In this document: positions 1 through 64,000 of the stretch, one piece after another
Layout of the letters: each line of letters begins with the position of its first letter
How positions within the stretch are numbered: position 1 is the first letter of the stretch
Source: Podarcis vaucheri
Taxonomy: Eukaryota
DNA: 64,000 nucleotides
Assembly: GCA_965113315.1 (NCBI GenBank)
Contig: OZ220372.1
Strand: one strand, 5' to 3'
The notes under the pieces: generated by a model
Seen by the model: only the letters and a program-made list of their open reading frames with translations
What the model was told of the DNA's origin: nothing
Databases searched by the model: none
Made by a program: the position numbers and the translations under genes

Positions 1-3000
1 ACGATTCTGTTCTCACAGATCATGCTGCCAGATAATTGTCAGTGAACTGATTGTGTACATCTCTTTGAAAAATTTCAGGCATTTTCCTGGGATGTATTTT
101 TTTAAAAATCTCAACATAATTCTTTGTTCTTTCAAAGGAATCCTATCTGAGTAGACGGCCTTTAAAATAAGCCAATCACTTTAAAGTTAGAATTAGTAGA
201 ACAAGCAAGTGACCTTTTGCAATATTAGAAGGTTAGTTGAAAAATGGTCTTGAAATCCTGCTTTATCTCTGTGAAGCTTAAAGAAAGGCACACAATTACA
301 ACTTGTGGGGTTAACATTTTCATCAAGGAAAATCAGAGCAATGCAAAGGACAGTGTACAGAGGGATGAACTTTTGAGTGCTGAACTTGTAAAATTAACCC
401 CATGTCGAGTATGGAATTCTTGGAACTGAAACTGAGATGCCTTTATATATAAGACATAGTTTACATTATCTCAGAATAGAGGTAATTTTTTACTTTAGAA
501 ACACTTAAAAAAATCTTGTTCTGCTTGTAGACTCTAAACGATTTGCCTTAGTGCTTACTTTATTGTAGCCATTTCCATTGTCCTTAATATAGTTACTTTT
601 GCATTTTAAATCTGGATTTCTAGTTGTCCAGTTACTAATGTACTGAAGTAATTACTACAAGCAAAATACATAGTACTGTCAGGAGAGTAATTCTGACTTT
701 GGAATTCCTGGTCACGACTGGAATTTATCTCGCAGCTGGATTTTGACTTAGTTGGCAAATTTATGAGCATCTCACAGTGGGTAAAACAAAGTTACAATGC
801 CACTTTGCTCTTCGGGCTCTCTGGGTTTCCATTAGTCTGATGTGCTATCTTGTTAATTCAGCCTTGCTAATCTAATGGAAGTATAATAAGCAGAAGTAAT
901 AGGAAGTACAGTAGAGAGTGCTGCAACTTCATTAGAAAGGAAATATGACAGAACATATTTGCAAATGGATTTTAATCCAAAAGCAGGAGAAGCATCTGTC
1001 TAAGGCTTCAATCTTATACGCACAGACATTGGATTAAAACCACAGCAGGACATCCTTCTTAATAGAAACGTATAAGATTGTGTCGCTTGGCAGATAATCC
1101 CTTGCTGTGTGCCAGATCACAGTAACATGCCATGAAAGAGGGCTTGGAAACTTCAGGTTTGGGGTCCAAATGTTGAACTTTCTTTAGGCTAGAGCCTCCT
1201 CGTCAGCTACACCTTCTCTCCTCAGGCCAAACCCTGCACTAGCATGGATGTAGTCCTGTGGGATTGTGAGCAGGGATTGGGTGGGGATAATCAACACCTT
1301 ACTTTTTGGGGAGGCAGGTTCCAGCTAGATCACTACGTCATCCTATGAGCTATTCAGCATGAAATTGGAATGTGTTAGTCTTCTCACTTAAATTCTCATG
1401 TGTGGATAAGTCTTCTCACTTAACCAAAATGTTTCCTTTTGCTTTTGTGCTGATTGGAGCCAATTAGAGCCAAAGGATAGCAGTAAACATGGGGAGAAGG
1501 GTGTGTGGGAGGGACACGAGGCTGCATGCATGCTAATGGAGTTCATTGTTCTTCGTTTCTCAAGGCAACTCCAAACAAAGAGACTGAGAACTATTTTTTT
1601 TATTGTAGAATCCTAGAAGGTTGCATAATCTTAGAAGAGGGTGTGAATGTGAGGTCTTGGTGTGATGAAGGGACTCTGCCTTTCTGAATTTGCTTACTGG
1701 TCCTACTTTGTAACCTCCTTGAATGTTTTTGCCTAGTTGAAATGTGTTATTGATCTATGGTAATGCCTTTTATTTGCTTGCTTGCTTGCTTGCTTGCATG
1801 CATGGAGGAAGGGGAAAGGATGTATCTGTTTGTAAACATTGCCTGCTGTACACTTTTGCCTCTTGCCACAGGCTTGTGGACCCTATAACATTTCCCAGAA
1901 GCGTATGTGGCCCTCATTCCGAAAAGGCTCTCCATAAAAGGAGAGCAAATGTTCCCCAAGTTAAAAACAGCCACCACCACCTGTAAATCCAACTTCCTCC
2001 GCCGATGCAAAAGCTTCCTGTTTCATCTGCCTGGCGAATGTTCTGACCAGGCTTTCTGAAGACCTATCTCTGAAAGGTGTGTGTAGGGCAGTCCTCTGTT
2101 TGAAGGAGTCCTCTACTTAAAAGGCTTGCAGGTTCCACCTAAAGAATAACAGGAAGGGAAAGCTGGAGCCTTGAAAAAGGACTGAGCAGGCACATGGGTC
2201 ACTTGGCCAGTTTTTGCCACTCACCATAGGTTAATTTTTTTATATATTACCTACCATTCATGTTGAAAATCCTTCCGAGGGGCATAAAATACAAGATAAA
2301 GAACACTTTAAAAAACCTACAGGTGTTTGTTTTTTTTTTAAAAGCCTTTCAATAAGTTACCTGGATCCTTCCCACTGGGCAGTTGGTGGTAGAGTGGCCC
2401 TGTGGTTAGGAGGAGATCGTCCTGCTTGAAGAGGCTCTGAGGTGATACCACCTGTTTCCCTGTCTCCTTGAACCTTTCCTACTTCCTGGTTTAATCAGAT
2501 GTGTGTGGAAGACCATTTCTGCTGAACCATTGAAATGGCCTTTAAATATCCAGCTAGCCTGATGGCTAACAGGAAAGGGAGGAAGCCTACATCTATCCCA
2601 ATGAATAAGTGAAAGCATTATCTTCATTAGAGTTGGTTTTTTCAGATCCCAAAGCTAATCCTTCTTTTCTTCAGCAATTGTTGAGCTATGTAAAAAATGT
2701 GAAATATAAAACTATCTAAGAGGGGGGAAAGTCTCATGGGGTACCGCTTTAGATAAGCTTACTCACATATGCACTGAAAACCTTTCTGTATATTCCTGGG
2801 GCACTGTATAAACCCATGGAAACGAGACTTGCTATTATCACACTTTGTTGAGTAGTTTTGGAAATGAATGTATGAATAAGAATGAGAAACTCAGTTTAAA
2901 GAACAGATAACTAAACCATTTATCTTTAAAGATAGGGTTTCATTTTTAAGGGCAAGTAAACAGAATTGCCCCCTTCCTTGCCATTTATGCAGCTCTTCCG

Positions 3001-8054: not shown

Positions 8055-8731
8055 TTTATTGGCATAATATGGTACAATTCAGTATTCAGTTACCTGGGAG
8101 TATGTCCCATTGAGTTTAACAGGACTTCCTTCTGAGTGGACATGTAAAGGGTTGCATGGGTAAGCTATCAATTTGTCTTCAAATAAGCATTAATCTAGCC
8201 AATAAATATTAATGGCTGGAATACTGCTTGTCAGACTGGCAGAAAAATACTGAAATAATAATGGTCACATGCTTACATATAAATGTATATTATATACAGC
8301 ACTTCCATTACAAATTGCAGTCTGTTATGTAGGCACGCATAGGAGTCCTATCACAGAGTGGATGAGCTTCGGGAATTACAATTCCTTTATACAGTGATAT
8401 GTCTTGCTTAATGGTATGTCTTGCTACCAGGTAGCCTTTGGAATGGCACTTTATGTTTTGTGCACTGCCACAAATCTGTAAAAGGGGACAGTTGCCAGCA
8501 CTGTAGCATTTCAACCTTTGGGCTCAGCTTGTGCCATGGATGAGACTTCATATGTTGATTGTTGTGCAACAGCCCTTCTGTCTGATTTTACACAGTTATT
8601 GGCTCCTGTAGCATGTGCAGTAGTAATGGTAATCAGGTGGCCATGTGTCCTATTTGAAAAAGGGTGGACCTTATCTGAAGGGCTGTCTGGTCAAGTTTAA
8701 AAATGAAGGACCATAATGCCTGTATGTAGAC

Positions 8732-8863
8732 CAGGGTTTCCCAAACCTGGGTCTCTGTTTTTGAACTACAGTTCCCATCATCCCTCACCACTGGTCCTGC
8801 TAGCTAGGGATGATGGGAGTTGTAGTCCAAACACAACTAGAGACCCAGGTTTGGGAAACACTG
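8732..8863. mobile_element. Palindromic hAT-type MITE
   Basis: TIR CAGGGTTTCCCAAACCTGGGTCT / AGACCCAGGTTTGGGAAACACTG, perfect 8-bp TSD ATGTAGAC (8724-8731 and 8864-8871), internal arms ACTACAGTTCCCATCATCCCT / AGGGATGATGGGAGTTGTAGT. Confidence 0.9.
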
Positions 8864-8879
8864 ATGTAGACCACTGACT

Positions 8880-10985: not shown

Positions 10986-11027
10986 GTCATGGAATTTGCA
11001 AATGGAACCTCATCCTACAATCCTATA

Positions 11028-11259
11028 CAGTGGTACCTCGGGTTAAGTACTTAATTCATTCCGGAGGTCTGTACTTACACCTGAAACTATTTTTAACCTG
11101 AAGCACCACTTTAGGTAATGGGGCCTCCCGCTGCCAGAGCACAATTTCTGTTCTCAACCTGAAGCAAAGTTCTTAACCTGAAGCACTATTTCTGGGTTAG
11201 CGGAGTCTGTAACCTAAAGCGTATGTAACCTGAAGCGTATGTAACCCGAGGTACCACTG
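11028..11259. mobile_element. Tigger/pogo-like MITE (AACCTGAAGC-repeat family)
   Basis: TIR CAGTGGTACCTCGGGTTA / TAACCCGAGGTACCACTG, TA TSD, repeated TAACCTGAAGC motif. Confidence 0.9.
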
Positions 11260-13232: not shown

Positions 13233-13327
13233 GCCTTCCAGATGCTTTGGACTACAACTCCCATCATTCTCACCTAACATGAACATGCTGGCTGAGGCTG
13301 ATGGGAGTTGTAGTCCGCAACATCTGA
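13233..13327. mobile_element. Core of the palindromic hAT-type MITE family
   Basis: CAGATG...GGACTACAACTCCCATCA / TGATGGGAGTTGTAGTCC...CATCTG inverted arms. Related copies near 28460-28535, 30660-30787, 30926-31046, 36290-36400, 40225-40352. Confidence 0.7.
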
Positions 13328-13439
13328 AAGTCTAAAGACTGAACCAAAGGTTTATTAAGCATCAGGTGAGCTGGCCATATATGGCTGATGGCTTGTATCT
13401 GGATTGGTTGGTAACAGATTTTGCAGATTGGTGTGCTCA

Positions 13440-21755: not shown

Positions 21756-22560
21756 ATTTACCAGTCTTGCTGTATATTCCCTGGAGAATTTGGCATATGT
21801 TGACAAATGCATTTGAAAAATGACAATGTATTTTTTGCATCCCCTCCCCCATATTTTCCATGTTTTTTTTATTGTGGTCTATGGTCTGGAGACTATTGGT
21901 TTTGAACTGATTGATTGGAAAATATTTGTTAAATATTTATAACTTAAATATTTATAAGTGTCTTATAGGAAAGGGAAAGAAGAAATCAAGAAAAGAATAG
22001 AAGACAATCTGAGAATTCCTTTATCTTTTATTATCATGCAAGAGATTAATTTCAGCAGATGCAGCTTCTCTTATCCCTTCATGGAAAGTGCACCTATTGA
22101 AATTAATAGTGGTGCAGGATAAGGAAAGATACAGAAGCTTTATCCTCCCTTGCATCTGGTCACTGGACATTGCACCAAAAGAAAGTGCTATGTGAGCAGA
22201 GTGACTGTGGGAAATCAAGGAGCAGGAAACCAAAGTTGATAAGTAGCAAGTTATTTTCCTGTAGTCTGGAAGAGTAAAGGCTCAGAATGCAGAAATTTAA
22301 CAAGAAATGAGGATGAATAGAACATTAATAGGCTTTGGAGGAGGGAGTCTATCAAGGCATAAGAGCCAACTCCTAGGGGCTGAGGTCCTTTCAGCACAAT
22401 CAAATATTTGAAGAAGCTGGTCCCTTAAAGCCATTCAAATAGTGTGCAAACACCGTGTATTGTGATTGATTATGTGGGGTGGGACTTACCTGTCCCCTCC
22501 CCCAATATTTTATTCAAGTTGGCAACCCCCGTATCAAGGAATCTATAGCAAATACCGGTA

Positions 22561-22799
22561 CAGTGGTACCTCGGATTACATACGATTCAGGTTACATACA
22601 CCTCAGGTTACAGACTCTGCTAACCCAGAAATAGTGCTTCAGGTTAAGAACTTTGCTTCAGGATGAGAACAGAAATCGTGCTCCGGTGGTGCAGCAGCAG
22701 GAGGCCCCATTAGCTAAAGTGGTGCTTCAGGTTAAGAACAGTTTCAGGTTAAGTACGGACCTCCGGAACAAATTAAGTACTTAACCCAAGGTACCACTG
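22561..22799. mobile_element. Tigger/pogo-like MITE, same family as 11028-11259, opposite orientation
   Basis: CAGTGGTACCT / AGGTACCACTG TIRs, TA TSD, repeated TTCAGGTTA. Confidence 0.9.
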
Positions 22800-23406
22800 T
22801 AGATCCTTTGAGTAGGGGATCTCTGGATATGGATTTGAGGACATTCTGCAACAGAGATATAAAAGTAGGAGTCCCAGGGAGGGCCAAAGTGAAAAAGTAA
22901 CCTAATCCTTTTGAAAATGAAATGATAAGGATTAATCAGGCTTCAGTATCCCCTCCTGCTTATTGACTGAGACAGGAGAAAACTAAGGATTGTCTTAAAA
23001 TTGGAAAAATACATTCTTGAAACTACGGCGATTCTGAATTACTGCTGCCAAGCTTTAGTCAGTTAAAGCAAAGAAGGGTGTGACGTGTAAAGAACTTAAT
23101 GCAAGAACTCCTGATAGCAAAGAACTTAACATACATTTCAAACTCAGCTGCTTTCACTGTGGTTTACCTGCACCACGCACAGTGGAATGTGCATGGATAG
23201 CTCTGTCCCCTTGACATCAGGATGTGTGCTGGCATTAGTACTGACCCAGTTTGTGATTGGCTGAGTCTGAAAGGGACCACCCCCTCACCCGTAGGGCTTC
23301 CAGCACAGGAGCAAGTACTCTGAGCTCCAATCTCAGCTTTGAAAACCCTGGCTGATTATGTGAAAGTGTCACCTCTCGCAAGCATGTCATGAAAGGGGAG
23401 CCTCTG

Positions 23407-36226: not shown

Positions 36227-38707
36227 AATTTATTCCTTATTAGATAACATGCAGTGAATGTGTTGCCTTTATAGCAAAAGTTGCTATTCAGTGGTGTTCT
36301 AGAAGTTCTAGGACTACAGTTCCCATAATTCCTAACCATTGGCCTGGATGACTGGTACTGATGGGAACTGGAGTCCAACAACCACAAGTTCTTCATCCCT
36401 GTTTATAGTCTTGTTTAAAGCAGCATCTTGAAAACTAAGTGGAAGGAAAGAAAGGTTCACTACGGTTGCAACTAGAATTCCCCCTCAAACCTGATATTCA
36501 CAGTGGAAAGAAAACTCATTTGTGGAATTGTGTGGAATTTCTTTAAGGATCATGGATGAGCTGAACTCCCGCTCCCACAATGCCATGGTTCCAAACTGAC
36601 TTACTCCATTCCACTCAAGCTGGCCGCTTGTTTTTCTAGAACAATCAGCCACATAAAGTCAATCACATGAGGAACCTTGTGTCTGATTTGTCCTCAGAGT
36701 GAGGCAATGCAAAAACCAGAACTGCAATCTCATATGCAAAAAAGCTGAGCCTTGATTTGCTCCACCCTTTGTCTCAACCTGAATGGGTTTTTTTTGGAGA
36801 GAGAGAGAGAGATTACATAATGTTTTATATTGTTTCCAGCCTTATTCCAATATCACTAGAGAGAGAGAGAGAGAGAAGATAGAACTCTTGAAGACTCAGG
36901 AACAGTGTTACTGTGATCAGTTTTGGAGTGGATGGAGGTGTGTTAGCTAATAAGAGACTATCAGGTGACATCCTCCCCCCCCCCAAAAAAAACCTGGAAC
37001 ATCCCTTCTCTCTTTGAATGTAAAAACAAATAAATCCAGACTCGCTGAGAAGAAAGAAATGTGACATCTTTGTTCAGTTAGAGGAAAACTGAGGTTGATG
37101 CCTCTTTGATACAGTGGTGAGACCCAGAGCCTTGGGCCCTTCATCTAGTAGCAAATATGCTTGCTGACATGGAAGGGCACACCTTGAAAAAGAGCGCTAT
37201 CAAACGACACCATTTTGTAAGCAGTGACAGTCCAGAATAGGGCAGGGCATGTCTGGTTTCCAGACAGCCTGGAAACCAGAAAGTGCTTTTTAGTGGAGAT
37301 GGAGATTTCCCTCCCACTGAGACAGGAAGACAAAGCATAACACTGCATGTGCAAGACGTGAAGCCATTTAGAAGCTTGATGAATCTGAATTAGATGCATC
37401 TTTAACAGTAGCTGGGATTAAAGGCTCGGCAATAACATAAGAGAGATAATTGGAATCTCACAATGCACAGTACTTCACTTTGGCATCAATTTCATAATAT
37501 AATAAAACTTATCATTTTGGAAGCTTGTCTGGTTTTTAGAAAAAGGCTGTGAACAATTCAATCTGTCCTGGTACATCAGACATGGCGTGCAGGTGGCTTA
37601 AGAACAAAGCATTTAATCAAGCAAAATTTTACTTAAACTACCTGATGATTCATCATCAAGTTCTTTCTCCATGTCCGTTGTGCCTTTCTGAGCTATTATT
37701 TATAGAATATTTGAAGAGCCTGGACTCCATGTGCTGCTGCTGCTGTGAATGCTATTGTACTGTAAATTACTGTTTCCTATTCGTTTCTGATTCAGTATAG
37801 ATTGCAGTGACTCATCCTTCTATTTTGATTGATGCTCTTTAGCGGCTGCACTAAAAGTCACGTTTTGTCACCAGTAATGCCTTGGTATTATTGGAATAAG
37901 ACTCCTTTCCTTGAGGGTGGGGGAAAACCCTATATAGTTAGGCAATTTAAGAATAATTTTCTTTTTTTCTCCCCCCTCCCCACTTTTTTTTTCTCAACAG
38001 AAGACTGGCATGCCAAATTGTTTGCAAATTATGTTTCTGTAAATATCACCTTTTGCTCATATTAATTTTGCCTGACTCACAACTTTGCAAAGTATTTTGG
38101 CTTTAGACATTTGACACTTGCTGTTCTATATTTTTCAGAAAGTCTGCTAAACTTCAGGTAAATTTCTTTGGGTAAATGGCTAGGAGTCCAGGTTGCCCAA
38201 GGTTCACTCAGCTTGAATGAGAGGGGTTTTGAACTTAAGCAAATCCTAAAGGTGTCAGCAAAAATGAAAGGGGGAATGACCTAAAAAGGAGCATTTGGCT
38301 TTAGGATAGGAGTGCATTGGTAATGGTGCTGGAAAAAGAGAATTGTGGGGGATTACCTTGGAATCGCAGAAGAAGCCTGCTGCAACAGACGAAGCACCTA
38401 TCTAATCCAGCAACCTGTTTTCCACAAGGGTCAACCAGTTGTCTTTGGTTGTCCTCAAGGAGGACATGAGAGCAAGAGGACTTTCACACTGCTGTTTCCT
38501 GGCAACTAGTGTTCAGAGGTATCCTCCCTCTGATCCTGGAGACAGCCTGTAGAGATGTTGACTGCTGTTGTTAGATTTATTACCCACCTTTTATCAGAAG
38601 ATCCATGGACAGTTTACAAGAGTCGCCATTGATATTAAGTCATTGCAAAAGTACTAAATGTCAAGTGACAGAAAAACAACCAGTTTTAACTGGGATGGAA
38701 GATACCA

Positions 38708-43801: not shown

Positions 43802-43996
43802 GGGGAGGGTCATAGCTCAGTGGTAGAACACTTGCCTTGCATACAGAAGGTCCCAGGTTGAATCCCTGGTATCTCCAAATAGGGCTGCAGAAGACTCCCT
43901 TCCTGGAACCCTGGAGAGCCGCTGCTAGTACTTAGTTAGATGGACCAGTGATCTGGTCTTAGTTAGATGGACCAGTGACATAGGAACAGCTTCCTG
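43802..43996 (+). mobile_element. tRNA-derived SINE (decayed)
   Basis: A box TAGCTCAGTGG, B-box-like GGTTGAATCCC, tail tagatggaccagtga...cagcttcct. Related pieces near 26180-26240 and 35095-35176. Confidence 0.7.
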
Positions 43997-46900: not shown

Positions 46901-48213
46901 CCACTGGGGCAGTTACTCCATCTAGTTCAATACTGGCCACTTCAGCTGGTGGCCTCTTTCCATGGTCTCAGGCACAGAACTGTCGCCAGACCTGGAAACA
47001 GAGACCCTATACTTACAAATGCTAAGGATAGAATCTTGAACTGTGCATGCAAAACTTGTGCTGTACCACAGAGCAGCAGTGCCTCTTGCCAGGGGCACCA
47101 CTAGGGCCAGAGCCCCACCGCCACCAGCAGCAATACTATACTGGCCAACAGTCTCACTTAGCAGTTAGCTGTTGGGCAGTTTCCTAATGCAGCAAATGGT
47201 TTTAGAATTTTTGAATCAATGGAGACATTTGCTGTTGCTGCTGTTGTTTCTCTATGAGGAATTGAAGACTATTTAGACACCACTGCTTCCTTGCCCTCAC
47301 GGCCACCTCCTTTTACTTCTATCAGCTTGCACTTCATCACTCTCAATGTTTTCATGGTTCATTTCCCATAGATGAACTTCAGCCTTCTTGTATCATGAAC
47401 AAAAAATGCTGTGGCATCTGCCTTTATGTTTTGACATGGTAGTGCACATGTTACTTGAAAGCAAATCTGACTTTCTTTGGTTTCATTTGCATTCTATATT
47501 TCATTTTTATACACAAGATTAACCCCCCCCCCACACACACACCATAAACAGAAGTGCTATACCTGAAGTAGCAAAGCAGATCACTATAAATTTGGGCTCT
47601 CTAATGTGGTGCCTGCAGCACTGTCACTCGCTCAGAAACCACTCTTGGCACCTATCAATTTTTTTAAAATGAGGGATTTGTGCTTTTGTTTTGGTTGGAG
47701 GGCTTGTATGGGTTTTTTTGGGGGGGGTGTTGCTTTTTTATCTGGTTTTTATGGGGGGGCATGTGACTGTTAGCCTGCTTTGGGGTATAATTTCTGAGTA
47801 TCACCAGTTTTTCTTCTGTGAAATAAATTTTGTGGTGCCCAGAACAGTTTCTTAGTTTTCTGCACGTACCTCCTATGATAAACACAGAAGCAAGACATCA
47901 TTGTGGTTGTACATGTGAATGTCTGCATTCAAGAATCATGTGCTTTTGGTTGCCTTTTTGTCTTATAATTCAATGGTTCTTTTAATGATTGTAACTAAAG
48001 ATTTATTCTATTTTTTAACATGCCTTGCAATAGCTGATACCCAAACAGCATATAGTACAAGTATCACATTTTAAAATATCAAAAGATATAATTTCTCAGA
48101 ATTTGTGTTGGCTAATCAAATTGTTCGTTAATCCATATTGTTTTAAAAGTATTTCTTGCTAGTTGTAGACAACAGCATTCATGTGCGAACAGTGCATAAA
48201 CCCAAAAGATATA

Positions 48214-48456
48214 CAGTGGTACCTTGGGTTAAGTACTTAATTCGTTCTGGAGATCCATTCTTAACCTGAAACTGTTCTTAACCTGAAACTGTTCTTAACC
48301 TGAAGCACCACTTTAGCTAATGAGGCCTCCTGCTGGTGCCACGCCGCTGGAGCATGATTTCTGTTCTCATCCTGAATCAAAGTTCTTAACCTGAGGTAAT
48401 ATTTCTGGGTTAGCGGAGTCTGTAACCTGAAGCGTATTTAACCCAAGGTATCACTG
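48214..48456. mobile_element. Tigger/pogo-like MITE, same family as 11028-11259
   Basis: CAGTGGTACCTTGGGTTAA / TTAACCCAAGGTATCACTG, TA TSD, internal 18-bp duplication. Confidence 0.9.
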
Positions 48457-51400
48457 TAGTCCATATACTGGAGTGTTTCCATTCAGTTCCACAGAAAGTT
48501 CATGGGCTGAGCTGGGTCAGACATTCAGAATACTTTGTGTCTGCATTCATGTACAGAGCAAAACATGTCACATTAAATCATAGTTAAAAGCAAACTGTGA
48601 ACTGGCAGTGTGTCAGTGCAAACTGGTGAAAAGTTCCTGCTCTACTTCTCCCTTGCTCCTGCTGCTGTTGTACCACTGGAAAACAAGCCAAAATATGACT
48701 TTTCCCGATTGCAGAACCCGAGATTCTTCTTTTGGGGGTGGGGGGCGGAACCACAAGTCTGAGTCTGGACATTATGAAGAGTCAGATTCCTAGCTTGTTG
48801 GTGCAACAACAGCAGGCACAGACAAGGAGCACAGCAGCATTTCAGCAGCATTCACTGCACAATTCACATTAAACCATAGTTTGTTTTAGTTTGTGGTTTA
48901 TTATGAACCAGGCCAATGTGCCGTCTGGGGCATCCATTGATATAGCTGCAGCTTTCTGGTGGCATTTTTTGAGACTGTGGCAACACGTTTTTCAGCTATT
49001 TTGATCTCGGTAATCACTCTGGCAATGCTGGGTGTACCTTGGGTGATATTCTGCCTTTGCCATTTGAATGAGTTCATGGAGCAATCAGGGAACATCTCGT
49101 GGATAATGTTTTAGCACTCCTTGGGCATTCTAGATCCCATGAAGAGCAATACGGGAGCTGGGCTGTGCACCAATACACCACTTCTCCTGATATCCATGCT
49201 TACAGAACAAATGTCTGCAGGAGAGTGCCTTCAAGTATACAGTCATATTTGCAAAGGCTTTTTCATGATCTGGAGCCAATTGTGCATTTGGATACCAGGC
49301 GAGGGGTTTCTTAGCACATGTGACATTAGAGGCTGCTACCATTGCTTTGCTCTTCATGGGAGCCAGAATGCCTGAACAGGGCTTTTGGATGTCTGAAATT
49401 GCCTTAAGGAACTTCTGCATTGTTAGATAATGCATCTCTTCCAGAATTGTTCAATTGCCGTCAGTGAGAATACTGTGGATTTGGGGTACCAGGGGTAAAG
49501 CTTGCTCAAGTTTGTTGTAATAGAATTAGGAACTGTGTCTTTTAATTCAGGTTCTTACATCTTAAAATATTCAGAAACAGTAAATGAATTCCACAATGCT
49601 GACATTTTATAGTATTAATAATGATTATATTAATTCAAGTTAATTATGTCCAGACACTCAGAATCATGTATAACTAATTGAATCTTATTTTCCCTAGAGT
49701 GTTTCAAGTGGTTGCAGACAACTAGTGATTAGATGTTCAAAAAAATTAGAAGTTGCAGTGTATTTGGGTAGGTAGTGGCAGCACAGACTTCCATGCTGCA
49801 AGTCGAATCCTGAGATCCATATGCCTAATGCTCAACTGAATAGGCACTAGTGATTAGTTATTTCTGGAATGTAAAGATTGTCTGTCTGTCTGGTTCCTAT
49901 ATGTATTAAGCATTTTAATCTGCGGTGGTTCCCCCCCCCCAAATATAAATTTATGACGAGATTAACAGTGAGCTTAGTTATCAGCCTGCAACATTTGTGT
50001 CAAATTCTTTTTCATCTTTATGCTCCTTTTGTCAGTCACCCCTAGTGTCAGGCACCTTCCTAAACTCATATATGCTCTTTATTCATTGACCAAATATAAG
50101 GGCGCTGTGAGAACATTTAGAACAACTCCTAAAAATAAGGCACTAGACATCCAGCAATTCCTATCATCATTTCCTTGTTGTGTTCTTTAAGCATTTAAGT
50201 ATTTGGAGGCATCCCAGAAAAATACACTTTGACTAAATCCCATTGAAAGCAAAGTAGAACTTGGTTACCACTAATAAGCCGCAAGAGACTTACTCATCAT
50301 AATTAACTTCTGCTGGGTTCACAAATCAATGCAACCCTATTTGCATTAGAGGGAGTCTCTCCAGGCCAAAGTAGATGTGGTATAGTACCCAATGCAGTTA
50401 GCTACTCCAGAGGGGGAATTTTCCCCAGGACCACAGCAGGAGCAGAAAGGATCAAAATCCCCCTCTTAGCCTGCTGCGGTTGCAGGAATTCCCCTTCCAA
50501 TAGTTGCCATTTGCCTTAAACCTGCAGTTTAAATGCAAAGGCATACTTTAACATCACATCTCTTTTGGCCCTCATTATTAGCTGGAGTGGTAGTGGGAGC
50601 CCTGTGAGCGGACCTCTTAAATTTCAGGTTTTATATGCCAATGATCTCCCTTGGACTCATAATATTATTTACAATTAAATGCATTGCAAAACTGAGGTGT
50701 ACATGTCCATAGCCATGTACTATTAAAGTTAAAGTTTTGAATAAAGCATATCCTGAAGATTGTAGTCCAACTCTGCCGCTGCAATTATAGAGAGAACTCA
50801 CTCAAGTAATTAACACTCAGTAAAATAATTAACTGGGGGGGGGGAGAGAGATCTACACTACCAAGACAGACCTTGGCATATTCTTACTTTTCTATCCTTG
50901 TTTCAGCACAAATTTCTGTAGTCCTTTCTAGTGTTTTGAAAAAATATGGTTATTTTCTTTTATCACTTACTCAATATCCCCACCCACTGAAAACAAATGT
51001 TGAGTACTGAAGGTGTGTGATCATGGAGATAATGAGCAGTAATTTGCATTCCTCTTTTGTGGTCATCTGTGTTCCTTTTAGCTTCTTCTGGGACATATTT
51101 TATGAACGTGACAGGGAGTTAAATAAGTTACCCGTGTTTCAGCCTGGTCTTGCCGATAAGTCTTCCTCATTTATATACAAACTGGCAAATGTTTTGGGAT
51201 CTGAACATGAAGTCCCCTTATGAACGACAGCGTGAAGTGCTGCACGCACACCTAATTGTGTTTCAAATCCTCAGGCAAAGTGCTACTAAGCAGATTATTC
51301 ACACGTACCCTTAAGCTATAAGAAGATGAAGTGAAAAGCAGAAATGTAAGGGTAAATAAGTATTTCAGTTTGTTGGCACCATGACAGATAGATATACAGA

Positions 51401-54975: not shown

Positions 54976-54999
54976 ATATATATATATATATATATATAT
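54976..54999. repeat. (TA)n tract, left part of the insertion target
   Basis: Direct reading. Confidence 0.95.
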
Positions 55000-55354
55000 G
55001 GGACGCGGGTGGCGCTGTGGGCTAAAGCCTCAGCGCCTAGGGCTTGCCGATTGAAAGGTCGGCGGTTCGAATCCCCGCGGCGGGGTGCGCTCCCGCTGTT
55101 CGGTCCCAGCGCCTGCCCACCTAGCAGTTCGAAAGCACCCCCGGGTGCAAGTAGATAAATAGGTACCGCTTACCAGCGGGAAGGTAAACGGCGTTCCGTG
55201 TGCGGCTCTGGCTCGCCAGAGCAGCGATGTCACGCTGGCCACGTGACCCGGAAGTGTCCCCGGACAGCGCTGGCCCCCGGCCAATAAATGTGAGATGGGC
55301 GCACAAACCCCACAGTCTGTCAAGACTGGCCCGTTCGGGCAGGGGTACCTTTAC
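55000..55354 (+). mobile_element. Sauria SINE (Squam1-type), full length and young
   Basis: GGGACGCGGGTGGCGCTGTGGG head, B box GGTTCGAATCC, ACCTTTAC tail, CpG-rich, flanked by TA repeats. Confidence 0.9.
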
Positions 55355-55358
55355 ATAT

Positions 55359-55405
55359 AGACACCCCGACTCTTACACGGGAAGACACCCGAAGACACCA
55401 AAACC

Positions 55406-55410
<5 letters not shown>
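55359..55410 (+). mobile_element. 52-bp inverted fragment of the PLE 5' region
   Basis: Exact reverse complement of 55473-55524. Confidence 0.95.

Positions 55411-55444
<34 letters not shown>
55409..55444. repeat. (AT)n tract between two PLE 3' ends
   Basis: Direct reading. Confidence 0.95.
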
Positions 55445-55446
<2 letters not shown>

Positions 55447-55526
55447 TTTCGTAGATTTTCACGGGTACAGGAATGCAGGTTTTGGTGTCTTCGGGTGTCT
55501 TCCCGTGTAAGAGTCGGGGTGTCTGG

Positions 55527-55564
55527 GCGACGTTTCGACGAGGTCTCACTCGTCATCTTCAGGC
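55527..55564 (-). ncRNA. Minimal type I hammerhead ribozyme motif (3'-most copy)
   Basis: gc-CUGAAGA-U-GACGAG-ugagac-CUCGUC-GAAACGUC^gc: conserved core, 6-bp helix II, palindromic ACGU in place of helix III; helix I only 2 bp by eye. Confidence 0.75.
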
Positions 55565-55619
55565 TGGTGCTTTCGGCTTCTTGTTACTGGAACAGAGCAG
55601 AATCTGGTGTTTGAGTTCC

Positions 55620-55627
55620 TATAAATA
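55620..55627. promoter_or_regulatory. TATA-like box in the PLE spacer (also 58581-58588, 61542-61549)
   Basis: TATAAATA (+) / TATTTATA (-), 64 nt upstream of the ORF ATG in every unit. Confidence 0.45.
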
Positions 55628-55796
55628 CTGTTGAGGGGTGTGGTGTATAGCCTCCAACGTTCTGGGCAGAGAGGAAGTTCCTAGATTAGTGTGCCTTTTC
55701 TTCTTTTGTTCCTTAATTACTTGAGGGATATCTTGAGTGATTTCATGAGTGATATTCTGAATACCATTGGGTGGGTCATTAAGTGTAGATTAGTTG

Positions 55797-58517
55797 CTAA
55801 AGCTTTCGTGTCTTGACCTCTTGAGCTTGTGAAGAGTTTTTCTGAGAAGATGGCTGTGCTGCATTTAGTTGTGCTCTGGCTTGGCTTCGTGTATAGGGGC
55901 GAGCTGTAATTTTGTGCCTTGTGCCAGCCAGATCTGTGTAGGGATTGCAGGGGGGTGCAGCATCCGGAGGTGCCACTATAGTTTGGCTACTGGATGGAGT
56001 CTGTAATATGTCTGTGGAGAGGGTCTGGGTTTGGGTCTGGTGTGGTTGATTGGTGACGGCGTTCTGTGTGCCTCTGGTTCTGGTGTCGGTTTTTGTGGGG
56101 AGGGCTAATTTCCAGATGTCAGGCAGGCGGGACGTGTCGTCACGCTTGTTCATGTTGTGAGGGTGTTTCTCTATCTCGATGGCTTCCATGATTATTCTCT
56201 TGTGGTGATGTTCCATGTTAAAGAGCAATTTGGAATCTGCAAAATTAATTTCGTGTCCTGTTTCTTTCATGTGTTGGAAAAGAGAGGAAGTTTTTTCTTC
56301 TTTTTTGACGGCATTCTTGTGTTCTGCGATACGTGCATTTATTCGTCTGTTTGTTTGTCCAATGTACGTGGCTGGGCAGACTTTGCAGGGTATTTCATAG
56401 ACCCCTTGGTTTTCGAGCTGGATTTTGTCTTTTGGGTTTCTGAGGATATTGGCTATTTTTTGGTTGGTGCAGAAGGCTGTTTTGATATTGTGTTTATGGA
56501 GGATTTTGCTAATTTTGTCTGTAGTGCCCTTGATGTAAGGAAGGAGGGCCATGCCATTGTTTTCTTCTGTGTCTTGGTTTTTGGGGGGTGTTTCTTTTTG
56601 GATTAGCTTCGTAACCTTGTTTTTCTGGTATCCATTGGCGATTAACACATTTGAGAGATTCTGTAACTCAGTTGTCAAGTGGTCTTTGTCAGCCAGGCGT
56701 TTGGTTCTGGAGATGAGAGTCTTGGCTACGGAGTTTATTTGTGCAGGGTGGTGGTGTGATTGTGCATGTAAGTAGCGGTTGGTGTGTGTTTTTTTCCGGT
56801 AGATAGTGTGTCCTAGGGAGCCATCAGGTTTTTTGTAGATTAGGACGTCAAGAAAGGGGAGTTGGTTGTTGTCTTCTATTTCCATAGTGAATTGTATTTT
56901 GGGGTGTAGACTGTTGAGATGTGTGAGGAAGCTATCTAGTTTTTCTTTCCCGTGTGGCCAAATTACAAAGGTGTCGTCAACATATCTGAGCCAAAGTTTG
57001 GGTTTGTGTTCTGACTTGTCTAAAGCATTGGTTTCAAAGTGTTCCATGTACAAATTTGCGATGACCGGTGAGAGGGGTGATCCCATAGGTGCTCCTTCTA
57101 TCTGTTTGTATCTTTGTCCATTGTGGATGAAGTACGTGTTGGTTAGGCAGTGGTTGGTCAGGTCCAGAATGTATTTGGGGGGATTGTATTTGTTTTGAAT
57201 GGCTGTCAAGGCTTCATTAATGGGCACTTGAGTGAAGAGAGATACAACATCGAAGCTCACAAGTAGGTCATCGGGATGTAGGTATTGCTTCTTTATTGTT
57301 TCTATGAACTGGAAGGAGTTAGTAACGTGTGAAGCGATGGATTCTGCATAGGGCTGAAGTTGCTTAGCGAGAAATTTAGCGAGATTTTGTAGAGGTGAGC
57401 CTATGGAGCTGACTATTGGTCTGAGTGGTGTTCCTTCTTTGTGTATCTTGGGGAGACCGTAGAGTTTGGGGCATCTGGATGATTTTTCTCTGGGGATGAT
57501 TCTTAGCTGGATTTCTTCACTGATAGGAGAGGCTTTTATTTTGGATTTGGTGGTTTTTTCCAGATAGGTGGTGGGATCTGTTTTTATAGGTTGGTAGGTA
57601 GGGTCTTGGAGTAGATTTGATAGTTTTGCTTGGTAGTCCGATGTGTTCATCACAACAGTGGCGTTGCCTTTGTCTGCTGGGAGAATGATTATGTTGTTGT
57701 CTTTTCTCAGGTTGGTGAGTGCTTTCTGTTCTTCTTTGTGTAAATTGCTTCTGGGTGGTTTGCTGGAGCAGAGGATGTTGGTGACTTCAAGTCTGATTTT
57801 ATTGGCTTCATCTGGGTCGATTTTAGTCAGGCTAGCTTCGACTCCGCATATGATGTTTTCCGTGGGGATGCGTCTCGGGGCGACTGCAAAGTTGAAACCT
57901 TTGGAGAGTACTTTGGTTTCAGTTGGGGTGAGGATCCTGTCTGATATGTTATGTACTGTTTGTTTCATGGGTTGTTGTGGAGGGTGGCTGGGCTTCTGGC
58001 GTTTCTCTAGTTTGTAGAGTTTGTTGGTGTGTCTGTCTGTCTTATGTGAGGTCTCAGTTTCAGCTCTCCAGACGGCTAGTTGTTTGCATTTGTCCCAGAG
58101 TGCAGGGTGGATTTTGTTACATAGTTTGAGGTGAAGAGTGAGCAGATCTTTGTTGGTTTGGTTTAGTAGGTATCTTTTCTTATGTATTTCGTTTCTGATT
58201 AGGGATAGTTCAGTTCGTTTCAGGATCCTTTCGGTAGCTGGGGTTTTAGAGTGGAATTTAAGTTGGAAGCATGTGGGAGTTAAGTTGTTGTCTCGGCATT
58301 TGCGTAGGAACAGGAGATCACATAAGATGGTGGCTCTTCGGATTTCTAGTTTCTCGTAGGTTCTTGTCAGCTGGAAGGTTTCCTCCCCGTAGAGGTGAGA
58401 TATTTGCTTTCGTAGATTTTCACGGGTACAGGAATGCAGGTTTTGGTGTCTTCGGGTGTCTTCCCGTGTAAGAGTCGGGGTGTCTGGGCGACGTTTCGAC
58501 GAGGTCTCACTCGTCAT
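55797..58517 (-). CDS. PLE polyprotein, 906 aa: N-terminal domain, reverse transcriptase, GIY-YIG endonuclease (Penelope/Poseidon type)
   Basis: IILPADKGNATVVM, LYGLPKIHK..PLRPIVS, SFDVVSLFT, GAPMGSPLSP, WLRYVDDTF, LPFLDV, GVYEIPCKVC...YIGQT; no Cys-rich linker between RT and endonuclease. Confidence 0.97.
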   Translation of the reverse strand: MTSETSSKRRPDTPTLTREDTRRHQNLHSCTRENLRKQISHLYGEETFQLTRTYEKLEIRRATILCDLLFLRKCRDNNLTPTCFQLKFHSKTPATERILKRTELSLIRNEIHKKRYLLNQTNKDLLTLHLKLCNKIHPALWDKCKQLAVWRAETETSHKTDRHTNKLYKLEKRQKPSHPPQQPMKQTVHNISDRILTPTETKVLSKGFNFAVAPRRIPTENIICGVEASLTKIDPDEANKIRLEVTNILCSSKPPRSNLHKEEQKALTNLRKDNNIIILPADKGNATVVMNTSDYQAKLSNLLQDPTYQPIKTDPTTYLEKTTKSKIKASPISEEIQLRIIPREKSSRCPKLYGLPKIHKEGTPLRPIVSSIGSPLQNLAKFLAKQLQPYAESIASHVTNSFQFIETIKKQYLHPDDLLVSFDVVSLFTQVPINEALTAIQNKYNPPKYILDLTNHCLTNTYFIHNGQRYKQIEGAPMGSPLSPVIANLYMEHFETNALDKSEHKPKLWLRYVDDTFVIWPHGKEKLDSFLTHLNSLHPKIQFTMEIEDNNQLPFLDVLIYKKPDGSLGHTIYRKKTHTNRYLHAQSHHHPAQINSVAKTLISRTKRLADKDHLTTELQNLSNVLIANGYQKNKVTKLIQKETPPKNQDTEENNGMALLPYIKGTTDKISKILHKHNIKTAFCTNQKIANILRNPKDKIQLENQGVYEIPCKVCPATYIGQTNRRINARIAEHKNAVKKEEKTSSLFQHMKETGHEINFADSKLLFNMEHHHKRIIMEAIEIEKHPHNMNKRDDTSRLPDIWKLALPTKTDTRTRGTQNAVTNQPHQTQTQTLSTDILQTPSSSQTIVAPPDAAPPCNPYTDLAGTRHKITARPYTRSQARAQLNAAQPSSQKNSSQAQEVKTRKL

Positions 58518-58525
58518 CTTCAGGC
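58488..58525 (-). ncRNA. Minimal hammerhead ribozyme motif (middle copy)
   Basis: Identical to 55527-55564. Confidence 0.75.
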
Positions 58526-58757
58526 TGGTGCTTTCGGCTTCTTGTTACTGGAACAGAGCAGAATCTGGTGTTTGAGTTCCTATAAATACTGTTGAGGGGT
58601 GTGGTGTATAGCCTCCAACGTTCTGGGCAGAGAGGAAGTTCCTAGATTAGTGTGCCTTTTCTTCTTTTGTTCCTTAATTACTTGAGGGATATCTTGAGTG
58701 ATTTCATGAGTGATATTCTGAATACCATTGGGTGGGTCATTAAGTGTAGATTAGTTG

Positions 58758-61478
58758 CTAAGGCTTTCGTGTCTTGACCTCTTGAGCTTGTGAAGAGTTT
58801 TTCTGAGAAGATGGCTGTGCTGCATTTAGTTGTGCTCTGGCTTGGCTTCGTGTATAGGGGCGAGCTGTAATTTTGTGCCTTGTGCCAGCCAGATCTGTGT
58901 AGGGATTGCAGGGGGGTGCAGCATCCGGAGGTGCCACTATAGTTTGGCTACTGGATGGAGTCTGTAATATGTCTGTGGAGAGGGTCTGGGTTTGGGTCTG
59001 GTGTGGTTGATTGGTGACGGCGTTCTGTGTGCCTCTGGTTCTGGTGTCGGTTTTTGTGGGGAGGGCTAATTTCCAGATGTCAGGCAGGCGGGACGTGTCG
59101 TCACGCTTGTTCATGTTGTGAGGGTGTTTCTCTATCTCGATGGCTTCCATGATTATTCTCTTGTGGTGATGTTCCATGTTAAAGAGCAATTTGGAATCTG
59201 CAAAATTAATTTCGTGTCCTGTTTCTTTCATGTGTTGGAAAAGAGAGGAAGTTTTTTCTTCTTTTTTGACGGCATTCTTGTGTTCTGCGATACGTGCATT
59301 TATTCGTCTGTTTGTTTGTCCAATGTACGTGGCTGGGCAGACTTTGCAGGGTATTTCATAGACCCCTTGGTTTTCGAGCTGGATTTTGTCTTTTGGGTTT
59401 CTGAGGATATTGGCTATTTTTTGGTTGGTGCAGAAGGCTGTTTTGATATTGTGTTTATGGAGGATTTTGCTAATTTTGTCTGTAGTGCCCTTGATGTAAG
59501 GAAGGAGGGCCATGCCATTGTTTTCTTCTGTGTCTTGGTTTTTGGGGGGTGTTTCTTTTTGGATTAGCTTCGTAACCTTGTTTTTCTGGTATCCATTGGC
59601 GATTAACACATTTGAGAGATTCTGTAACTCAGTTGTCAAGTGGTCTTTGTCAGCCAGGCGTTTGGTTCTGGAGATGAGAGTCTTGGCTACGGAGTTTATT
59701 TGTGCAGGGTGGTGGTGTGATTGTGCATGTAAGTAGCGGTTGGTGTGTGTTTTTTTCCGGTAGATAGTGTGTCCTAGGGAGCCATCAGGTTTTTTGTAGA
59801 TTAGGACGTCAAGAAAGGGGAGTTGGTTGTTGTCTTCTATTTCCATAGTGAATTGTATTTTGGGGTGTAGACTGTTGAGATGTGTGAGGAAGCTATCTAG
59901 TTTTTCTTTCCCGTGTGGCCAAATTACAAAGGTGTCGTCAACATATCTGAGCCAAAGTTTGGGTTTGTGTTCTGACTTGTCTAAAGCATTGGTTTCAAAG
60001 TGTTCCATGTACAAATTTGCGATGACCGGTGAGTGGGGTGATCCCATAGGTGCTCCTTCTATCTGTTTGTATCTTTGTCCATTGTGGATGAAGTACGTGT
60101 TGGTTAGGCAGTGGTTGGTCAGGTCCAGAATGTATTTGGGGGGATTGTATTTGTTTTGAATGGCTGTCAAGGCTTCATTAATGGGCACTTGAGTGAAGAG
60201 AGATACAACATCGAAGCTCACAAGTAGGTCATCGGGATGTAGGTATTGCTTCTTTATTGTTTCTATGAACTGGAAGGAGTTAGTAACGTGTGAAGCGATG
60301 GATTCTGCATAGGGCTGAAGTTGCTTAGCGAGAAATTTAGCGAGATTTTGTAGAGGTGAGCCTATGGAGCTGACTATTGGTCTGAGTGGTGTTCCTTCTT
60401 TGTGTATCTTGGGGAGACCGTAGAGTTTGGGGCATCTGGATGATTTTTCTCTGGGGATGATTCTTAGCTGGATTTCTTCACTGATAGGAGAGGCTTTTAT
60501 TTTGGATTTGGTGGTTTTTTCCAGATAGGTGGTGGGATCTGTTTTTATAGGTTGGTAGGTAGGGTCTTGGAGTAGATTTGATAGTTTTGCTTGGTAGTCC
60601 GATGTGTTCATCACAACAGTGGCGTTGCCTTTGTCTGCTGGGAGAATGATTATGTTGTTGTCTTTTCTCAGGTTGGTGAGTGCTTTCTGTTCTTCTTTGT
60701 GTAAATTGCTTCTGGGTGGTTTGCTGGAGCAGAGGATGTTGGTGACTTCAAGTCTGATTTTATTGGCTTCATCTGGGTCGATTTTAGTCAGGCTAGCTTC
60801 GACTCCGCATATGATGTTTTCCGTGGGGATGCGTCTCGGGGCGACTGCAAAGTTGAAACCTTTGGAGAGTACTTTGGTTTCAGTTGGGGTGAGGATCCTG
60901 TCTGATATGTTATGTACTGTTTGTTTCATGGGTTGTTGTGGAGGGTGGCTGGGCTTCTGGCGTTTCTCTAGTTTGTAGAGTTTGTTGGTGTGTCTGTCTG
61001 TCTTATGTGAGGTCTCAGTTTCAGCTCTCCAGACGGCTAGTTGTTTGCATTTGTCCCAGAGTGCAGGGTGGATTTTGTTACATAGTTTGAGGTGAAGAGT
61101 GAGCAGATCTTTGTTGGTTTGGTTTAGTAGGTATCTTTTCTTATGTATTTCGTTTCTGATTAGGGATAGTTCAGTTCGTTTCAGGATCCTTTCGGTAGCT
61201 GGGGTTTTAGAGTGGAATTTAAGTTGGAAGCATGTGGGAGTTAAGTTGTTGTCTCGGCATTTGCGTAGGAACAGGAGATCACATAAGATGGTGGCTCTTC
61301 GGATTTCTAGTTTCTCGTAGGTTCTTGTCAGCTGGAAGGTTTCCTCCCCGTAGAGGTGAGATATTTGCTTTCGTAGATTTTCACGGGTACAGGAATGCAG
61401 GTTTTGGTGTCTTCGGGTGTCTTCCCGTGTAAGAGTCGGGGTGTCTGGGCGACGTTTCGACGAGGTCTCACTCGTCAT
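58758..61478 (-). CDS. PLE polyprotein, 906 aa, second tandem copy
   Basis: Same protein except GSPLSP to GSPHSP (nt 60034) and terminal L to P (nt 58762). Confidence 0.97.
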   Translation of the reverse strand: MTSETSSKRRPDTPTLTREDTRRHQNLHSCTRENLRKQISHLYGEETFQLTRTYEKLEIRRATILCDLLFLRKCRDNNLTPTCFQLKFHSKTPATERILKRTELSLIRNEIHKKRYLLNQTNKDLLTLHLKLCNKIHPALWDKCKQLAVWRAETETSHKTDRHTNKLYKLEKRQKPSHPPQQPMKQTVHNISDRILTPTETKVLSKGFNFAVAPRRIPTENIICGVEASLTKIDPDEANKIRLEVTNILCSSKPPRSNLHKEEQKALTNLRKDNNIIILPADKGNATVVMNTSDYQAKLSNLLQDPTYQPIKTDPTTYLEKTTKSKIKASPISEEIQLRIIPREKSSRCPKLYGLPKIHKEGTPLRPIVSSIGSPLQNLAKFLAKQLQPYAESIASHVTNSFQFIETIKKQYLHPDDLLVSFDVVSLFTQVPINEALTAIQNKYNPPKYILDLTNHCLTNTYFIHNGQRYKQIEGAPMGSPHSPVIANLYMEHFETNALDKSEHKPKLWLRYVDDTFVIWPHGKEKLDSFLTHLNSLHPKIQFTMEIEDNNQLPFLDVLIYKKPDGSLGHTIYRKKTHTNRYLHAQSHHHPAQINSVAKTLISRTKRLADKDHLTTELQNLSNVLIANGYQKNKVTKLIQKETPPKNQDTEENNGMALLPYIKGTTDKISKILHKHNIKTAFCTNQKIANILRNPKDKIQLENQGVYEIPCKVCPATYIGQTNRRINARIAEHKNAVKKEEKTSSLFQHMKETGHEINFADSKLLFNMEHHHKRIIMEAIEIEKHPHNMNKRDDTSRLPDIWKLALPTKTDTRTRGTQNAVTNQPHQTQTQTLSTDILQTPSSSQTIVAPPDAAPPCNPYTDLAGTRHKITARPYTRSQARAQLNAAQPSSQKNSSQAQEVKTRKP

Positions 61479-61486
61479 CTTCAGGC
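61449..61486 (-). ncRNA. Minimal hammerhead ribozyme motif (5'-most copy)
   Basis: Identical to 55527-55564. Confidence 0.75.
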
Positions 61487-62015
61487 TGGTGCTTTCGGCT
61501 TCTTGTTACTGGAACAGAGCAGAATCTGGTGTTTGAGTTCCTATAAATACTGTTGAGGGGTGTGGTGTATAGCCTCCAACGTTCTGGGCAGAGAGGAAGT
61601 TCCTAGATTAGTGTGCCTTTTCTTCTTTTGTTCCTTAATTACTTGAGGGATATCTTGAGTGATTTCATGAGTGATATTCTGAATACCATTGGGTGGGTCA
61701 TTAAGTGTAGATTAGTTGCTAAAGCTTTCGTGTCTTGACCTCTTGAGCTTGTGAAGAGTTTTTCTGAGAAGATGGCTGTGCTGCATTTAGTTGTGCTCTG
61801 GCTTGGCTTCGTGTATAGGGGCGAGCTGTAATTTTGTGCCTTGTGCCAGCCAGATCTGTGTAGGGATTGCAGGGGGGTGCAGCATCCGGAGGTGCCACTA
61901 TAGTTTGGCTACTGGATGGAGTCTGTAATATGTCTGTGGAGAGGGTCTGGGTTTGGGTCTGGTGTGGTTGATTGGTGACGGCGTTCTGTGTGCCTCTGGT
62001 TCTGGTTCTGGTTCT

Positions 62016-63916
62016 ACAACATAATCATTCTCCCAGCAGACAAAGGCAACGCCACTGTTGTGATGAACACATCGGACTACCAAGCAAAACTATCAAATCT
62101 ACTCCAAGACCCTACCTACCAACCTATAAAAACAGATCCCACCACCTATCTGGAAAAAACCACCAAATCCAAAATAAAAGCCTCTCCTATCAGTGAAGAA
62201 ATCCAGCTAAGAATCATCCCCAGAGAAAAATCATCCAGATGCCCCAAACTCTACGGTCTCCCCAAGATACACAAAGAAGGAACACCACTCAGACCAATAG
62301 TCAGCTCCATAGGCTCACCTCTACAAAATCTCGCTAAATTTCTCGCTAAGCAACTTCAGCCCTATGCAGAATCCATCGCTTCACACGTTACTAACTCCTT
62401 CCAGTTCATAGAAACAATAAAGAAGCAATACCTACATCCCGATGACCTACTTGTGAGCTTCGATGTTGTATCTCTCTTCACTCAAGTGCCCATTAATGAA
62501 GCCTTGACAGCCATTCAAAACAAATACAACCCCCCCAAATACATCCTGGACCTGACCAACCACTGCCTAACCAACACGTACTTCATCCACAATGGACAAA
62601 GATACAAACAGATAGAAGGAGCACCTATGGGATCACCCCTCTCACCGGTCATCGCAAATTTGTACATGGAACACTTTGAAACCAATGCTTTAGACAAGTC
62701 AGAACACAAACCCAAACTTTGGCTCAGATATGTTGACGACACCTTTGTAATTTGGCCACACGGGAAAGAAAAACTAGATAGCTTCCTCACACATCTCAAC
62801 AGCCTACACCCCAAAATACAATTCACTATGGAAATAGAAGACAACAACCAACTCCCCTTTCTTGACGTCCTAATCTACAAAAAACCTGATGGCTCCCTAG
62901 GACACACTATCTACCGGAAAAAAACACACACCAACCGCTACTTACATGCACAATCACACCACCACCCTGCACAAATAAACTCCGTAGCCAAGACTCTCAT
63001 CTCCAGAACCAAACGCCTGGCTGACAAAGACCACTTGACAACTGAGTTACAGAATCTCTCAAATGTGTTAATCGCCAATGGATACCAGAAAAACAGGGTT
63101 ACGAAGCTAATCCAAAAAGAAACACCCCCCAAAAACCAAGACACAGAAGAAAACAATGGCATGGCCCTCCTTCCTTATATCAAGGGCACTACAGACAAAA
63201 TCAGCAAAATCCTCCATAAACACAATATCAAAACAGCCTTCTGCACCAACCAAAAAATAGCCAATATCCTCAGAAACCCAAAAGACAAAATCCAGCTGGA
63301 AAACCAAGGGGTCTATGAAATACCCTGCAAAGTCTGCCCAGCCACGTACATTGGACAAACAAACAGACGAATAAATGCACGTATCGCAGAACACAAGAAT
63401 GCCGTCAAAAAAGAAGAAAAAACTTCCTCTCTTTTCCAACACATGAAAGAAACAGGACACGAAATTAATTTTGCAGATTCCAAATTGCTCTTTAACATGG
63501 AACATCACCACAAGAGAATAATCATGGAAGCCATCGAGATAGAGAAACACCCTCACAACATGAACAAGCGTGACGACACGTCCCGCCTGCCAGACATCTG
63601 GAAATTAGCCCTCCCCACAAAAACCGACACCAGAACCAGAGGCACACAGAACGCCGTCACCAATCAACCACACCAGACCCAAACCCAGACCCTCTCCACA
63701 GACATATTACAGACTCCATCCAGTAGCCAAACTATAGTGGCACCTCCGGATGCTGCACCCCCCTGCAATCCCTACACAGATCTGGCTGGCACAAGGCACA
63801 AAACCACAGCTCGCCCCTATACACGAAGCCAAGCCAGAGCACAACTAAATGCAGCACAGCCATCTTCTCAGAAAAACTCTTCACAAGCTCAAGAGGTCAA
63901 GACACGAAAGCTTTAG
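62016..63916 (+). pseudogene. 5'-truncated but uninterrupted PLE RT + GIY-YIG reading frame
   Basis: Starts at NIIILPADKG and keeps all RT and endonuclease motifs; lacks the first ~274 aa, promoter and native ATG. Confidence 0.85.
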
Positions 63917-64000
63917 CAACTAATCTACACTTAATGACCCACCCAATGGTATTCAGAATATCACTCATGAAATCACTCAAGATATCCCTCAAGTAATTAA
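62016..64000 (+). mobile_element. 5'-truncated inverted PLE copy, running off the window end
   Basis: Reverse complement of 58674-60658 with about 10 substitutions. Confidence 0.96.

Follow-up and report, generated by a model that had tools for sequence, protein, structure and literature searches.

Within the 64,000-nt stretch of Podarcis vaucheri DNA analysed here (contig OZ220372.1; hereafter the window), the short fragment at 55359–55410 is best explained as an ordinary, very short 5′-truncated insertion of a Penelope-like element (PLE) in an (AT)n hotspot, whose early stop was probably unrelated to ribozyme cleavage (a reading to which we assign a probability of roughly 0.6). The identity and orientation of the two facing copies, the two family-wide 3′ ends (+84 and +113..118) beside (AT)n and the lack of a tail in the fragment are observed; the proximity of the fragment end to a predicted hammerhead cut is probably a coincidence. 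Element positions are numbered with +1 as the A of the ATG at 55556, 58517 and 61478, and statements on published work refer to the available excerpts of the papers cited.

An inverted-repeat search of the window reproduced the perfect inverted pair from which the original prediction had started: the arms 55359–55410 and 55473–55524 are 52 nt in length, 100% complementary and separated by 62 nt. In a BLAST comparison of the element unit with the window, the first arm aligned with nt +33..+84 of the element (identity 100%, E 5e-21), a match far above chance, and it represents the sole short copy of the family within the window. The supposed 62-nt loop is composed of 34 nt of (AT)n (55411–55444) and 28 nt of the element (55445–55472, nt +112..+85). 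Additionally, the inverted-repeat search identified the first arm as complementary to copies 2 and 3 of the array too, indicating a second copy of the element rather than a selected hairpin; the ‘hairpin’ is thus two PLE copies, arranged tail-to-tail with (AT)18 between them (Table 1). A selected RNA hairpin or miRNA was rejected because the arms are two copies of one element, while the Rfam matches on the fragment (MIR537, MIR7723 and others), every one of which fell below the gathering score, are such as any long hairpin would give.

The fragment starts 4–5 nt past the predicted hammerhead cut (+28/+29), and the proposal that it equals nt 5–56 of the predicted 3′ cleavage product (cut after +28) was found to be correct, with end bases that are ambiguous with (AT)n. 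Since its first A (+33) and last AT (+83/84) are common to the flanking (AT)n, the true copy measures 49–52 bp and lacks 4 or 5 of the bases predicted for the product. An interpretation of the ATAT before the fragment as decayed +29..+32 was discarded, as three of these 5 nt would have to have changed next to a run of 52 bases that are all identical.

Table 1. Features of the fragment, its neighbours and the facing array in the window.
Feature	Position	Strand	Basis
(AT)12 flanking the SINE on the left, probably the remaining half of the original microsatellite	54976..54999	.	BLAST
CpG-rich SINE, apparently full-length, ending in ACCTTT (Sauria-type), 4–5 nt from the fragment 5′ end	55000..55354	+	CpG o/e 0.92 versus 0.20 in flank; PMC13295347 (excerpt)
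5′-truncated, tail-less PLE copy (nt +33..+84; 1 nt and 2 nt at its ends are common to (AT)n)	55359..55410	+	BLAST, inverted-repeat search; +84 is a family-wide end
(AT)18 microsatellite, target common to fragment and array	55409..55444	.	BLAST; family 3′ ends adjoin (AT)n
Seamless head-to-tail array, ~2.2 units of a 2961-bp Penelope/Poseidon-type element	55439..62006	-	Inverted-repeat search, BLAST, ORFs
PLE ‘tail’, nt +85..+112 (+118 if 55439–55444 is read with one mismatch); on the array end, absent from the fragment	55445..55472	-	BLAST, contig ends, PMC11167929 (excerpt)
Minimal type I hammerhead motif with a 2-bp helix I, a 6-bp helix II and a palindromic helix III around the core; cut predicted at 55529|55528; ATG 55556 inside	55529..55562	-	Motif scan; descriptor of PMC4209133 (excerpt)
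Inverted 5′-truncated copy, head-to-head with the array, continuing past the window end	62016..64000	+	Inverted-repeat search, BLAST

The array, a young one, carries two intact 906-aa ORFs for RT and GIY-YIG (58517–55797 and 61478–58758, minus strand). RVT_1 was detected in the 906-aa ORF with an E value of 7e-15 (55.8 bits; cutoff 29.6), and GIY-YIG PF01541 (residues 705–744) scored 22.9 bits against a cutoff of 22.6 in the excised region and 19.7 bits, below cutoff, in the whole protein; a PDB search returned weak RT matches only. The hallmarks of EN+ PLEs are present, i.e. RT in a single ORF, a C-terminal GIY-YIG, a pLTR derived from tandem copies, an inverted 5′-truncated copy and a tail. 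The element would belong to the Penelope/Poseidon clade, judging from the layout that it has in common with Poseidon PAc of Anolis carolinensis and from an RT-EN linker with no obvious Cys motif by eye. BLAST comparison of array copies 1 and 2 identified differences at 2 of 2961 positions, and the inverted arm 62016–64000, aligned with 55713–57697, differs from the tandem copies at ~10–11 of 1985 positions; being more divergent than copies 1 and 2 are, it probably derives from another source copy. Exact 17-nt scans found no family copies among 5 viral and 118 metagenome loci (metagenome: 59 of 64 parts), all 123 loci being taken as chance matches since the best alignment was 39 nt at 87%. The tandem 906-aa ORFs (55797–58517 and 58758–61478), each with a pLTR upstream, make this a candidate active source locus. 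At the head-to-head junction (61995–62016), the terminal 6-mer of the truncated arm occurs in an additional copy, which resembles slippage or RT repeat addition.

In its anatomy, the locus agrees with known EN+ PLE insertions. In the canonical cases (PMC8557442, PMC3846280 and PMC2377424, in the parts available), 5′-truncated copies, tandems and an inverted copy at the 5′ end (here at 62006/62016) are likewise encountered, as are a 30–40-bp tail at one end only and microsatellite targets; the inverted copy is usually head-to-head, however, whereas the 52-bp arm lies tail-to-tail across target DNA. The closest parallel is provided by PAc (PMC11167929, excerpt), which also possesses a single ORF for RT and C-terminal GIY-YIG, tandem copies, an ATG at the start of hammerhead stem II with the cut ~28–29 nt into the ORF, and two RT starts that bound the tail (main +111..118) at AT-rich targets; by eye, the AC-rich stem-loop region is also similar to the printed RNA template of that study. 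The two differ in family sequence and in helix I, for which we count 2 bp here and, by eye, ~3 bp in the RNA printed for PAc.

The hammerhead motif at the array end (Table 1) recurs at 58523 and 61484 in the array units. A motif scan against the features given in PMC4209133 (excerpt) identified the core boxes, helix II, the palindromic helix III and the cleavage triplet, while the Rfam hammerhead models gave no match at E<=1. In common with the minimal PLE hammerheads of that paper, the motif displays an extra nucleotide before helix II, a G-C closing pair and a helix III that is loopless. In contrast to the 4–5 bp that are usual for helix I in those ribozymes, only two contiguous pairs are formed, both in the window and in variants from contig sets X1, X6 and X7 (three organisms). 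This lowers without abolishing the likelihood of activity, as the D. virilis hammerhead also has a helix I of 2 bp (PMC4209133, excerpt). In the predicted fold, helix II is the sole confident hairpin of the region.

To locate the 3′ ends of family copies, the three contig sets, together with RNA run X23, were aligned to one pLTR-ORF junction (window 58310–58759), to which 174 (X1), 156 (X6) and 189 (X7) contigs aligned in part. Loose ends with (AT)n were located at 58400 (+118) in 45, 68 and 71 contigs (X1, X6 and X7, respectively), and at 58434 (+84) in 23 contigs each of X1 and X6, the latter position being absent from the X7 ends listed. In PMC11167929 (excerpt), Anolis Poseidon is described as using AT-rich targets, extending both strands and starting RT at two sites, chiefly at +111..118, between which the 30–40-nt tail lies. 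Each of the two copies studied here ends at one of these natural starts, the fragment at +82..84 and the array at +113..118. The original prediction had proposed that RT primed internally and then ran off the 5′ end of a self-cleaved RNA. Its first half is supported, since the fragment end is a recurrent family end by (AT)n that matches the upstream start of PMC11167929, where internal RT initiation has already been published; its second half is not supported, given the absence of listed stops close to the cut, of a depth step and of the 4–5 nt adjoining the cut, as detailed below. A modest contribution of the data is that both RT start sites are found again in a further family of squamate type.

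These 3′ ends also bear on the weakest alternative, in which the fragment would be a fold-back copy of the array end or an error of assembly at the self-complementary (AT)n; we consider it extremely improbable. The inverted identity is indeed perfect across this microsatellite, the locus being taken here as assembled, but fold-back is excluded, as it would copy and retain the tail first, whereas the fragment skips these 28 nt and begins at the second natural end (46 contigs), and the presence of natural family 3′ ends on both copies argues against an artefact.

The in vivo role of PLE hammerheads is debated, with cleavage and circularisation proposed on the one hand (PMC4209133, excerpt) and dispensability in vitro reported on the other (PMC11167929, excerpt), and a concentration of copy ends at the cut would bear on this question; the locus and the family ends listed display none. 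No paper mapping the 5′ ends of PLE copies relative to the hammerhead cut was found in the literature searched, including the available part of bioRxiv 10.64898/2026.07.22.740005. The peak at or just after the cut that was anticipated for the family did not materialise among the stops listed for contig sets X1, X6 and X7: of the 25 cDNA stops (7 + 8 joints and 10 contigs), which are the best supported of a longer listing with a further 154 loose-end rows and 5 joint rows, not one is found within 5 nt of the cut, where 0.95 would be expected if they were uniform. The interval +22..+40 is devoid of listed stops; three occur at +43..+50 (+43, +44 and +50), four at −8..−12, ten at −42..−45 and eight elsewhere upstream. 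Rows left out of this count comprise two at the edge, five whose loose ends carry on into a diverged form of the element (X6 58727, twice; X7 58566, 58599 and 58727), those on the 3′ side and those from RNA; some of the joints may equate to later deletions, and some rows may represent one event. Ordering by support should favour a real peak, although 1–2 contigs per base near the cut could fall outside the stops listed.

Furthermore, the summed contig depth 3′ and 5′ of the cut was 1.61M/1.50M (X1), 0.87M/0.90M (X6) and 0.51M/0.80M (X7), i.e. without a step across the cut, in contrast to a 2.5–4-fold step at the +118 end; contig depth is a crude measure, as adjacent bins differ by up to ~2-fold, and excludes only a dominant class. 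RNA run X23 similarly displayed a depth of 61 versus 63 across the cut and no place there at which reads begin or end, the sole listed begin place being 58589; the 133 aligned reads are drawn from ~6% of a run from another organism (organism C) and may reflect copies inside host transcripts. A dominant peak of family ends at the cut is therefore unlikely, while a minor class of such ends is possible. The predominance of listed 5′ ends upstream of the ribozyme (−8..−12 and −42..−45) would mean that uncut RNA is the usual template.

The main cluster of listed stops, at −42..−45 (58559–58562; also 55598–55601 and 61520–61523), coincides with a small palindrome, as noticed post hoc, and lies 26–29 nt downstream of a TATA-like box (−71..−64), which can be read as a TATA box from either strand; it is a candidate transcription start or fold-back site. 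The smaller cluster at −8..−12 (58525–58529) is situated at the 5′ edge of the hammerhead. In X23, adapter-like loose ends on the + strand at 58452–58453 and 58568 may correspond to antisense RNA 5′ ends or to strand-invasion artefacts, and we take their appearance to be that of a 5′-tag library.

According to the ordinary-truncation reading, the GIY-YIG nuclease would have nicked the bottom strand of the (AT)n, with RT starting at +82..84 on the element RNA in a target-primed manner. Synthesis would have stopped at +33/34 and the cDNA may then have been joined to residual AT via 1-nt microhomology. The opposite strand of this microsatellite would have served a second insertion, namely the long array with its start at +113..118, and the inverted repeat would be the consequence of two insertions that face each other tail-to-tail. 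PLEs tend to insert in or beside existing copies (PMC6765202, excerpt). Against this reading, tail-to-tail pairs are rarer than head-to-head ones (PMC3846280, excerpt), and the coincidence with the cut is not highly likely under a broad null (~1–3%). The chance of one end falling in the 6–11-nt zone amounts to 1–7% for ends spread over 150–1000 nt and to about 1–3% for one junction with ends over 340–1000 nt, rising to up to 20% over the three junctions of the window.

A rather unlikely alternative, though the best placed, is a SINE-PLE chimera, in which RT would have started at +84, copied 50 nt of the PLE and then changed template to a SINE RNA, entering at its 3′ end and copying it in full, so that the 5′ end of the fragment would represent the switch point. 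The young, apparently full-length SINE shares its strand with the fragment at a distance of 4–5 nt, and both are bordered by (AT)12 and (AT)18, the target of the PLE. At its 3′ end there is one ACCTTT unit, where Sauria SINEs carry (ACCTTT)n, which is common to Bov-B (PMC13295347, excerpt); by eye, the T-stretch ~10 nt upstream that typifies Sauria SINE sites in the same source is lacking. Short AT fillers similar to that between SINE and fragment occur in the tandem joints listed for the family, and PLEs can carry unrelated sequence (PMC3846280, excerpt). However, prior insertion of the SINE with duplication of part of the (AT)n, followed by insertion of the fragment into the duplicate, would yield an identical sequence, Sauria SINEs have their own partner LINE, and the case consists of a single locus. 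The head and body of this SINE (55000–55354) are presumably Sauria-type, with a tRNA-derived head. U6-LINE-1 chimeras provide a precedent for template switching.

Run-off on cleaved RNA as a minor pathway, with a start at +84, a run-off at +29 and trimming of 4–5 G/C-rich bases upon joining to the AT target, is in our view unlikely. The end of the fragment 4–5 nt from the predicted cut and a core that fits the minimal PLE hammerhead (PMC4209133, excerpt) speak in its favour, as does the cleavage of the Anolis PLE ribozyme in vitro in the presence of its protein; in the same system, however, ribozyme mutants inserted normally in vitro and no ends of RNA-seq reads coincided with the cut (PMC11167929, excerpt). 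The genomic fossil of the original prediction is of the type known from R2 with its HDV-like ribozyme, where cDNA runs off at the cut and ribozyme-defined 5′ ends are established. In R2, the types of 5′ junction found in endogenous copies are correlated with the cut site, in contrast to the lack of listed family stops at the cut in the present case, and junctions vary by target deletions and added bases rather than by loss of element bases (PMC3774820, excerpt). The fragment begins at +33/34 rather than at the cut nucleotide +29, where an R2-like run-off product would start, and it is thus the 4–5 bases expected at the run-off end that are absent. The 2-bp helix I of the window and of the variants of three organisms, and the stop and depth data described above, also count against run-off. 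PMC4209133 (excerpt) proposes cleavage and circularisation by PLE hammerheads, although in vivo cleavage is not demonstrated in the part available; the systems of its circular-RNA model have a seamless tandem array in common with this locus, and the seamlessness of the array (2/2961 differences) fits that model, but is explained equally well by an uncleaved tandem transcript.

The run-off and SINE-PLE chimera readings can combine, in that strong-stop cDNA would form on hammerhead-cleaved PLE RNA and RT would jump at the cut end to SINE RNA, an elaboration that we regard as quite improbable. If true, PLE ribozyme cleavage would thereby have left a first trace in vivo, and jumps from end to end at cut ends would account for seamless tandem arrays too. 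Very improbable is a stall of RT before a folded hammerhead or RNP boundary on uncut RNA, resulting in a structure-biased end: helix II could act as such an obstacle, being the only confident hairpin there, and four of the 25 listed stops map to the hammerhead 5′ edge, but helix II ends at +21, 12 nt past the observed stop, and none of the listed stops falls at +22..+40.

Further features were noted elsewhere in the window. A tRNA model match at 43806–43877 (32.8 bits; gathering 29) perhaps represents a SINE head or a tRNA pseudogene. Additionally, two families of older dispersed, MITE-like repeats with inverted ends were identified, one at 11024–11275, 22559–22813 and 48200–48472, and the other at 8727–8868, 13235–13330 and 36302–36388.
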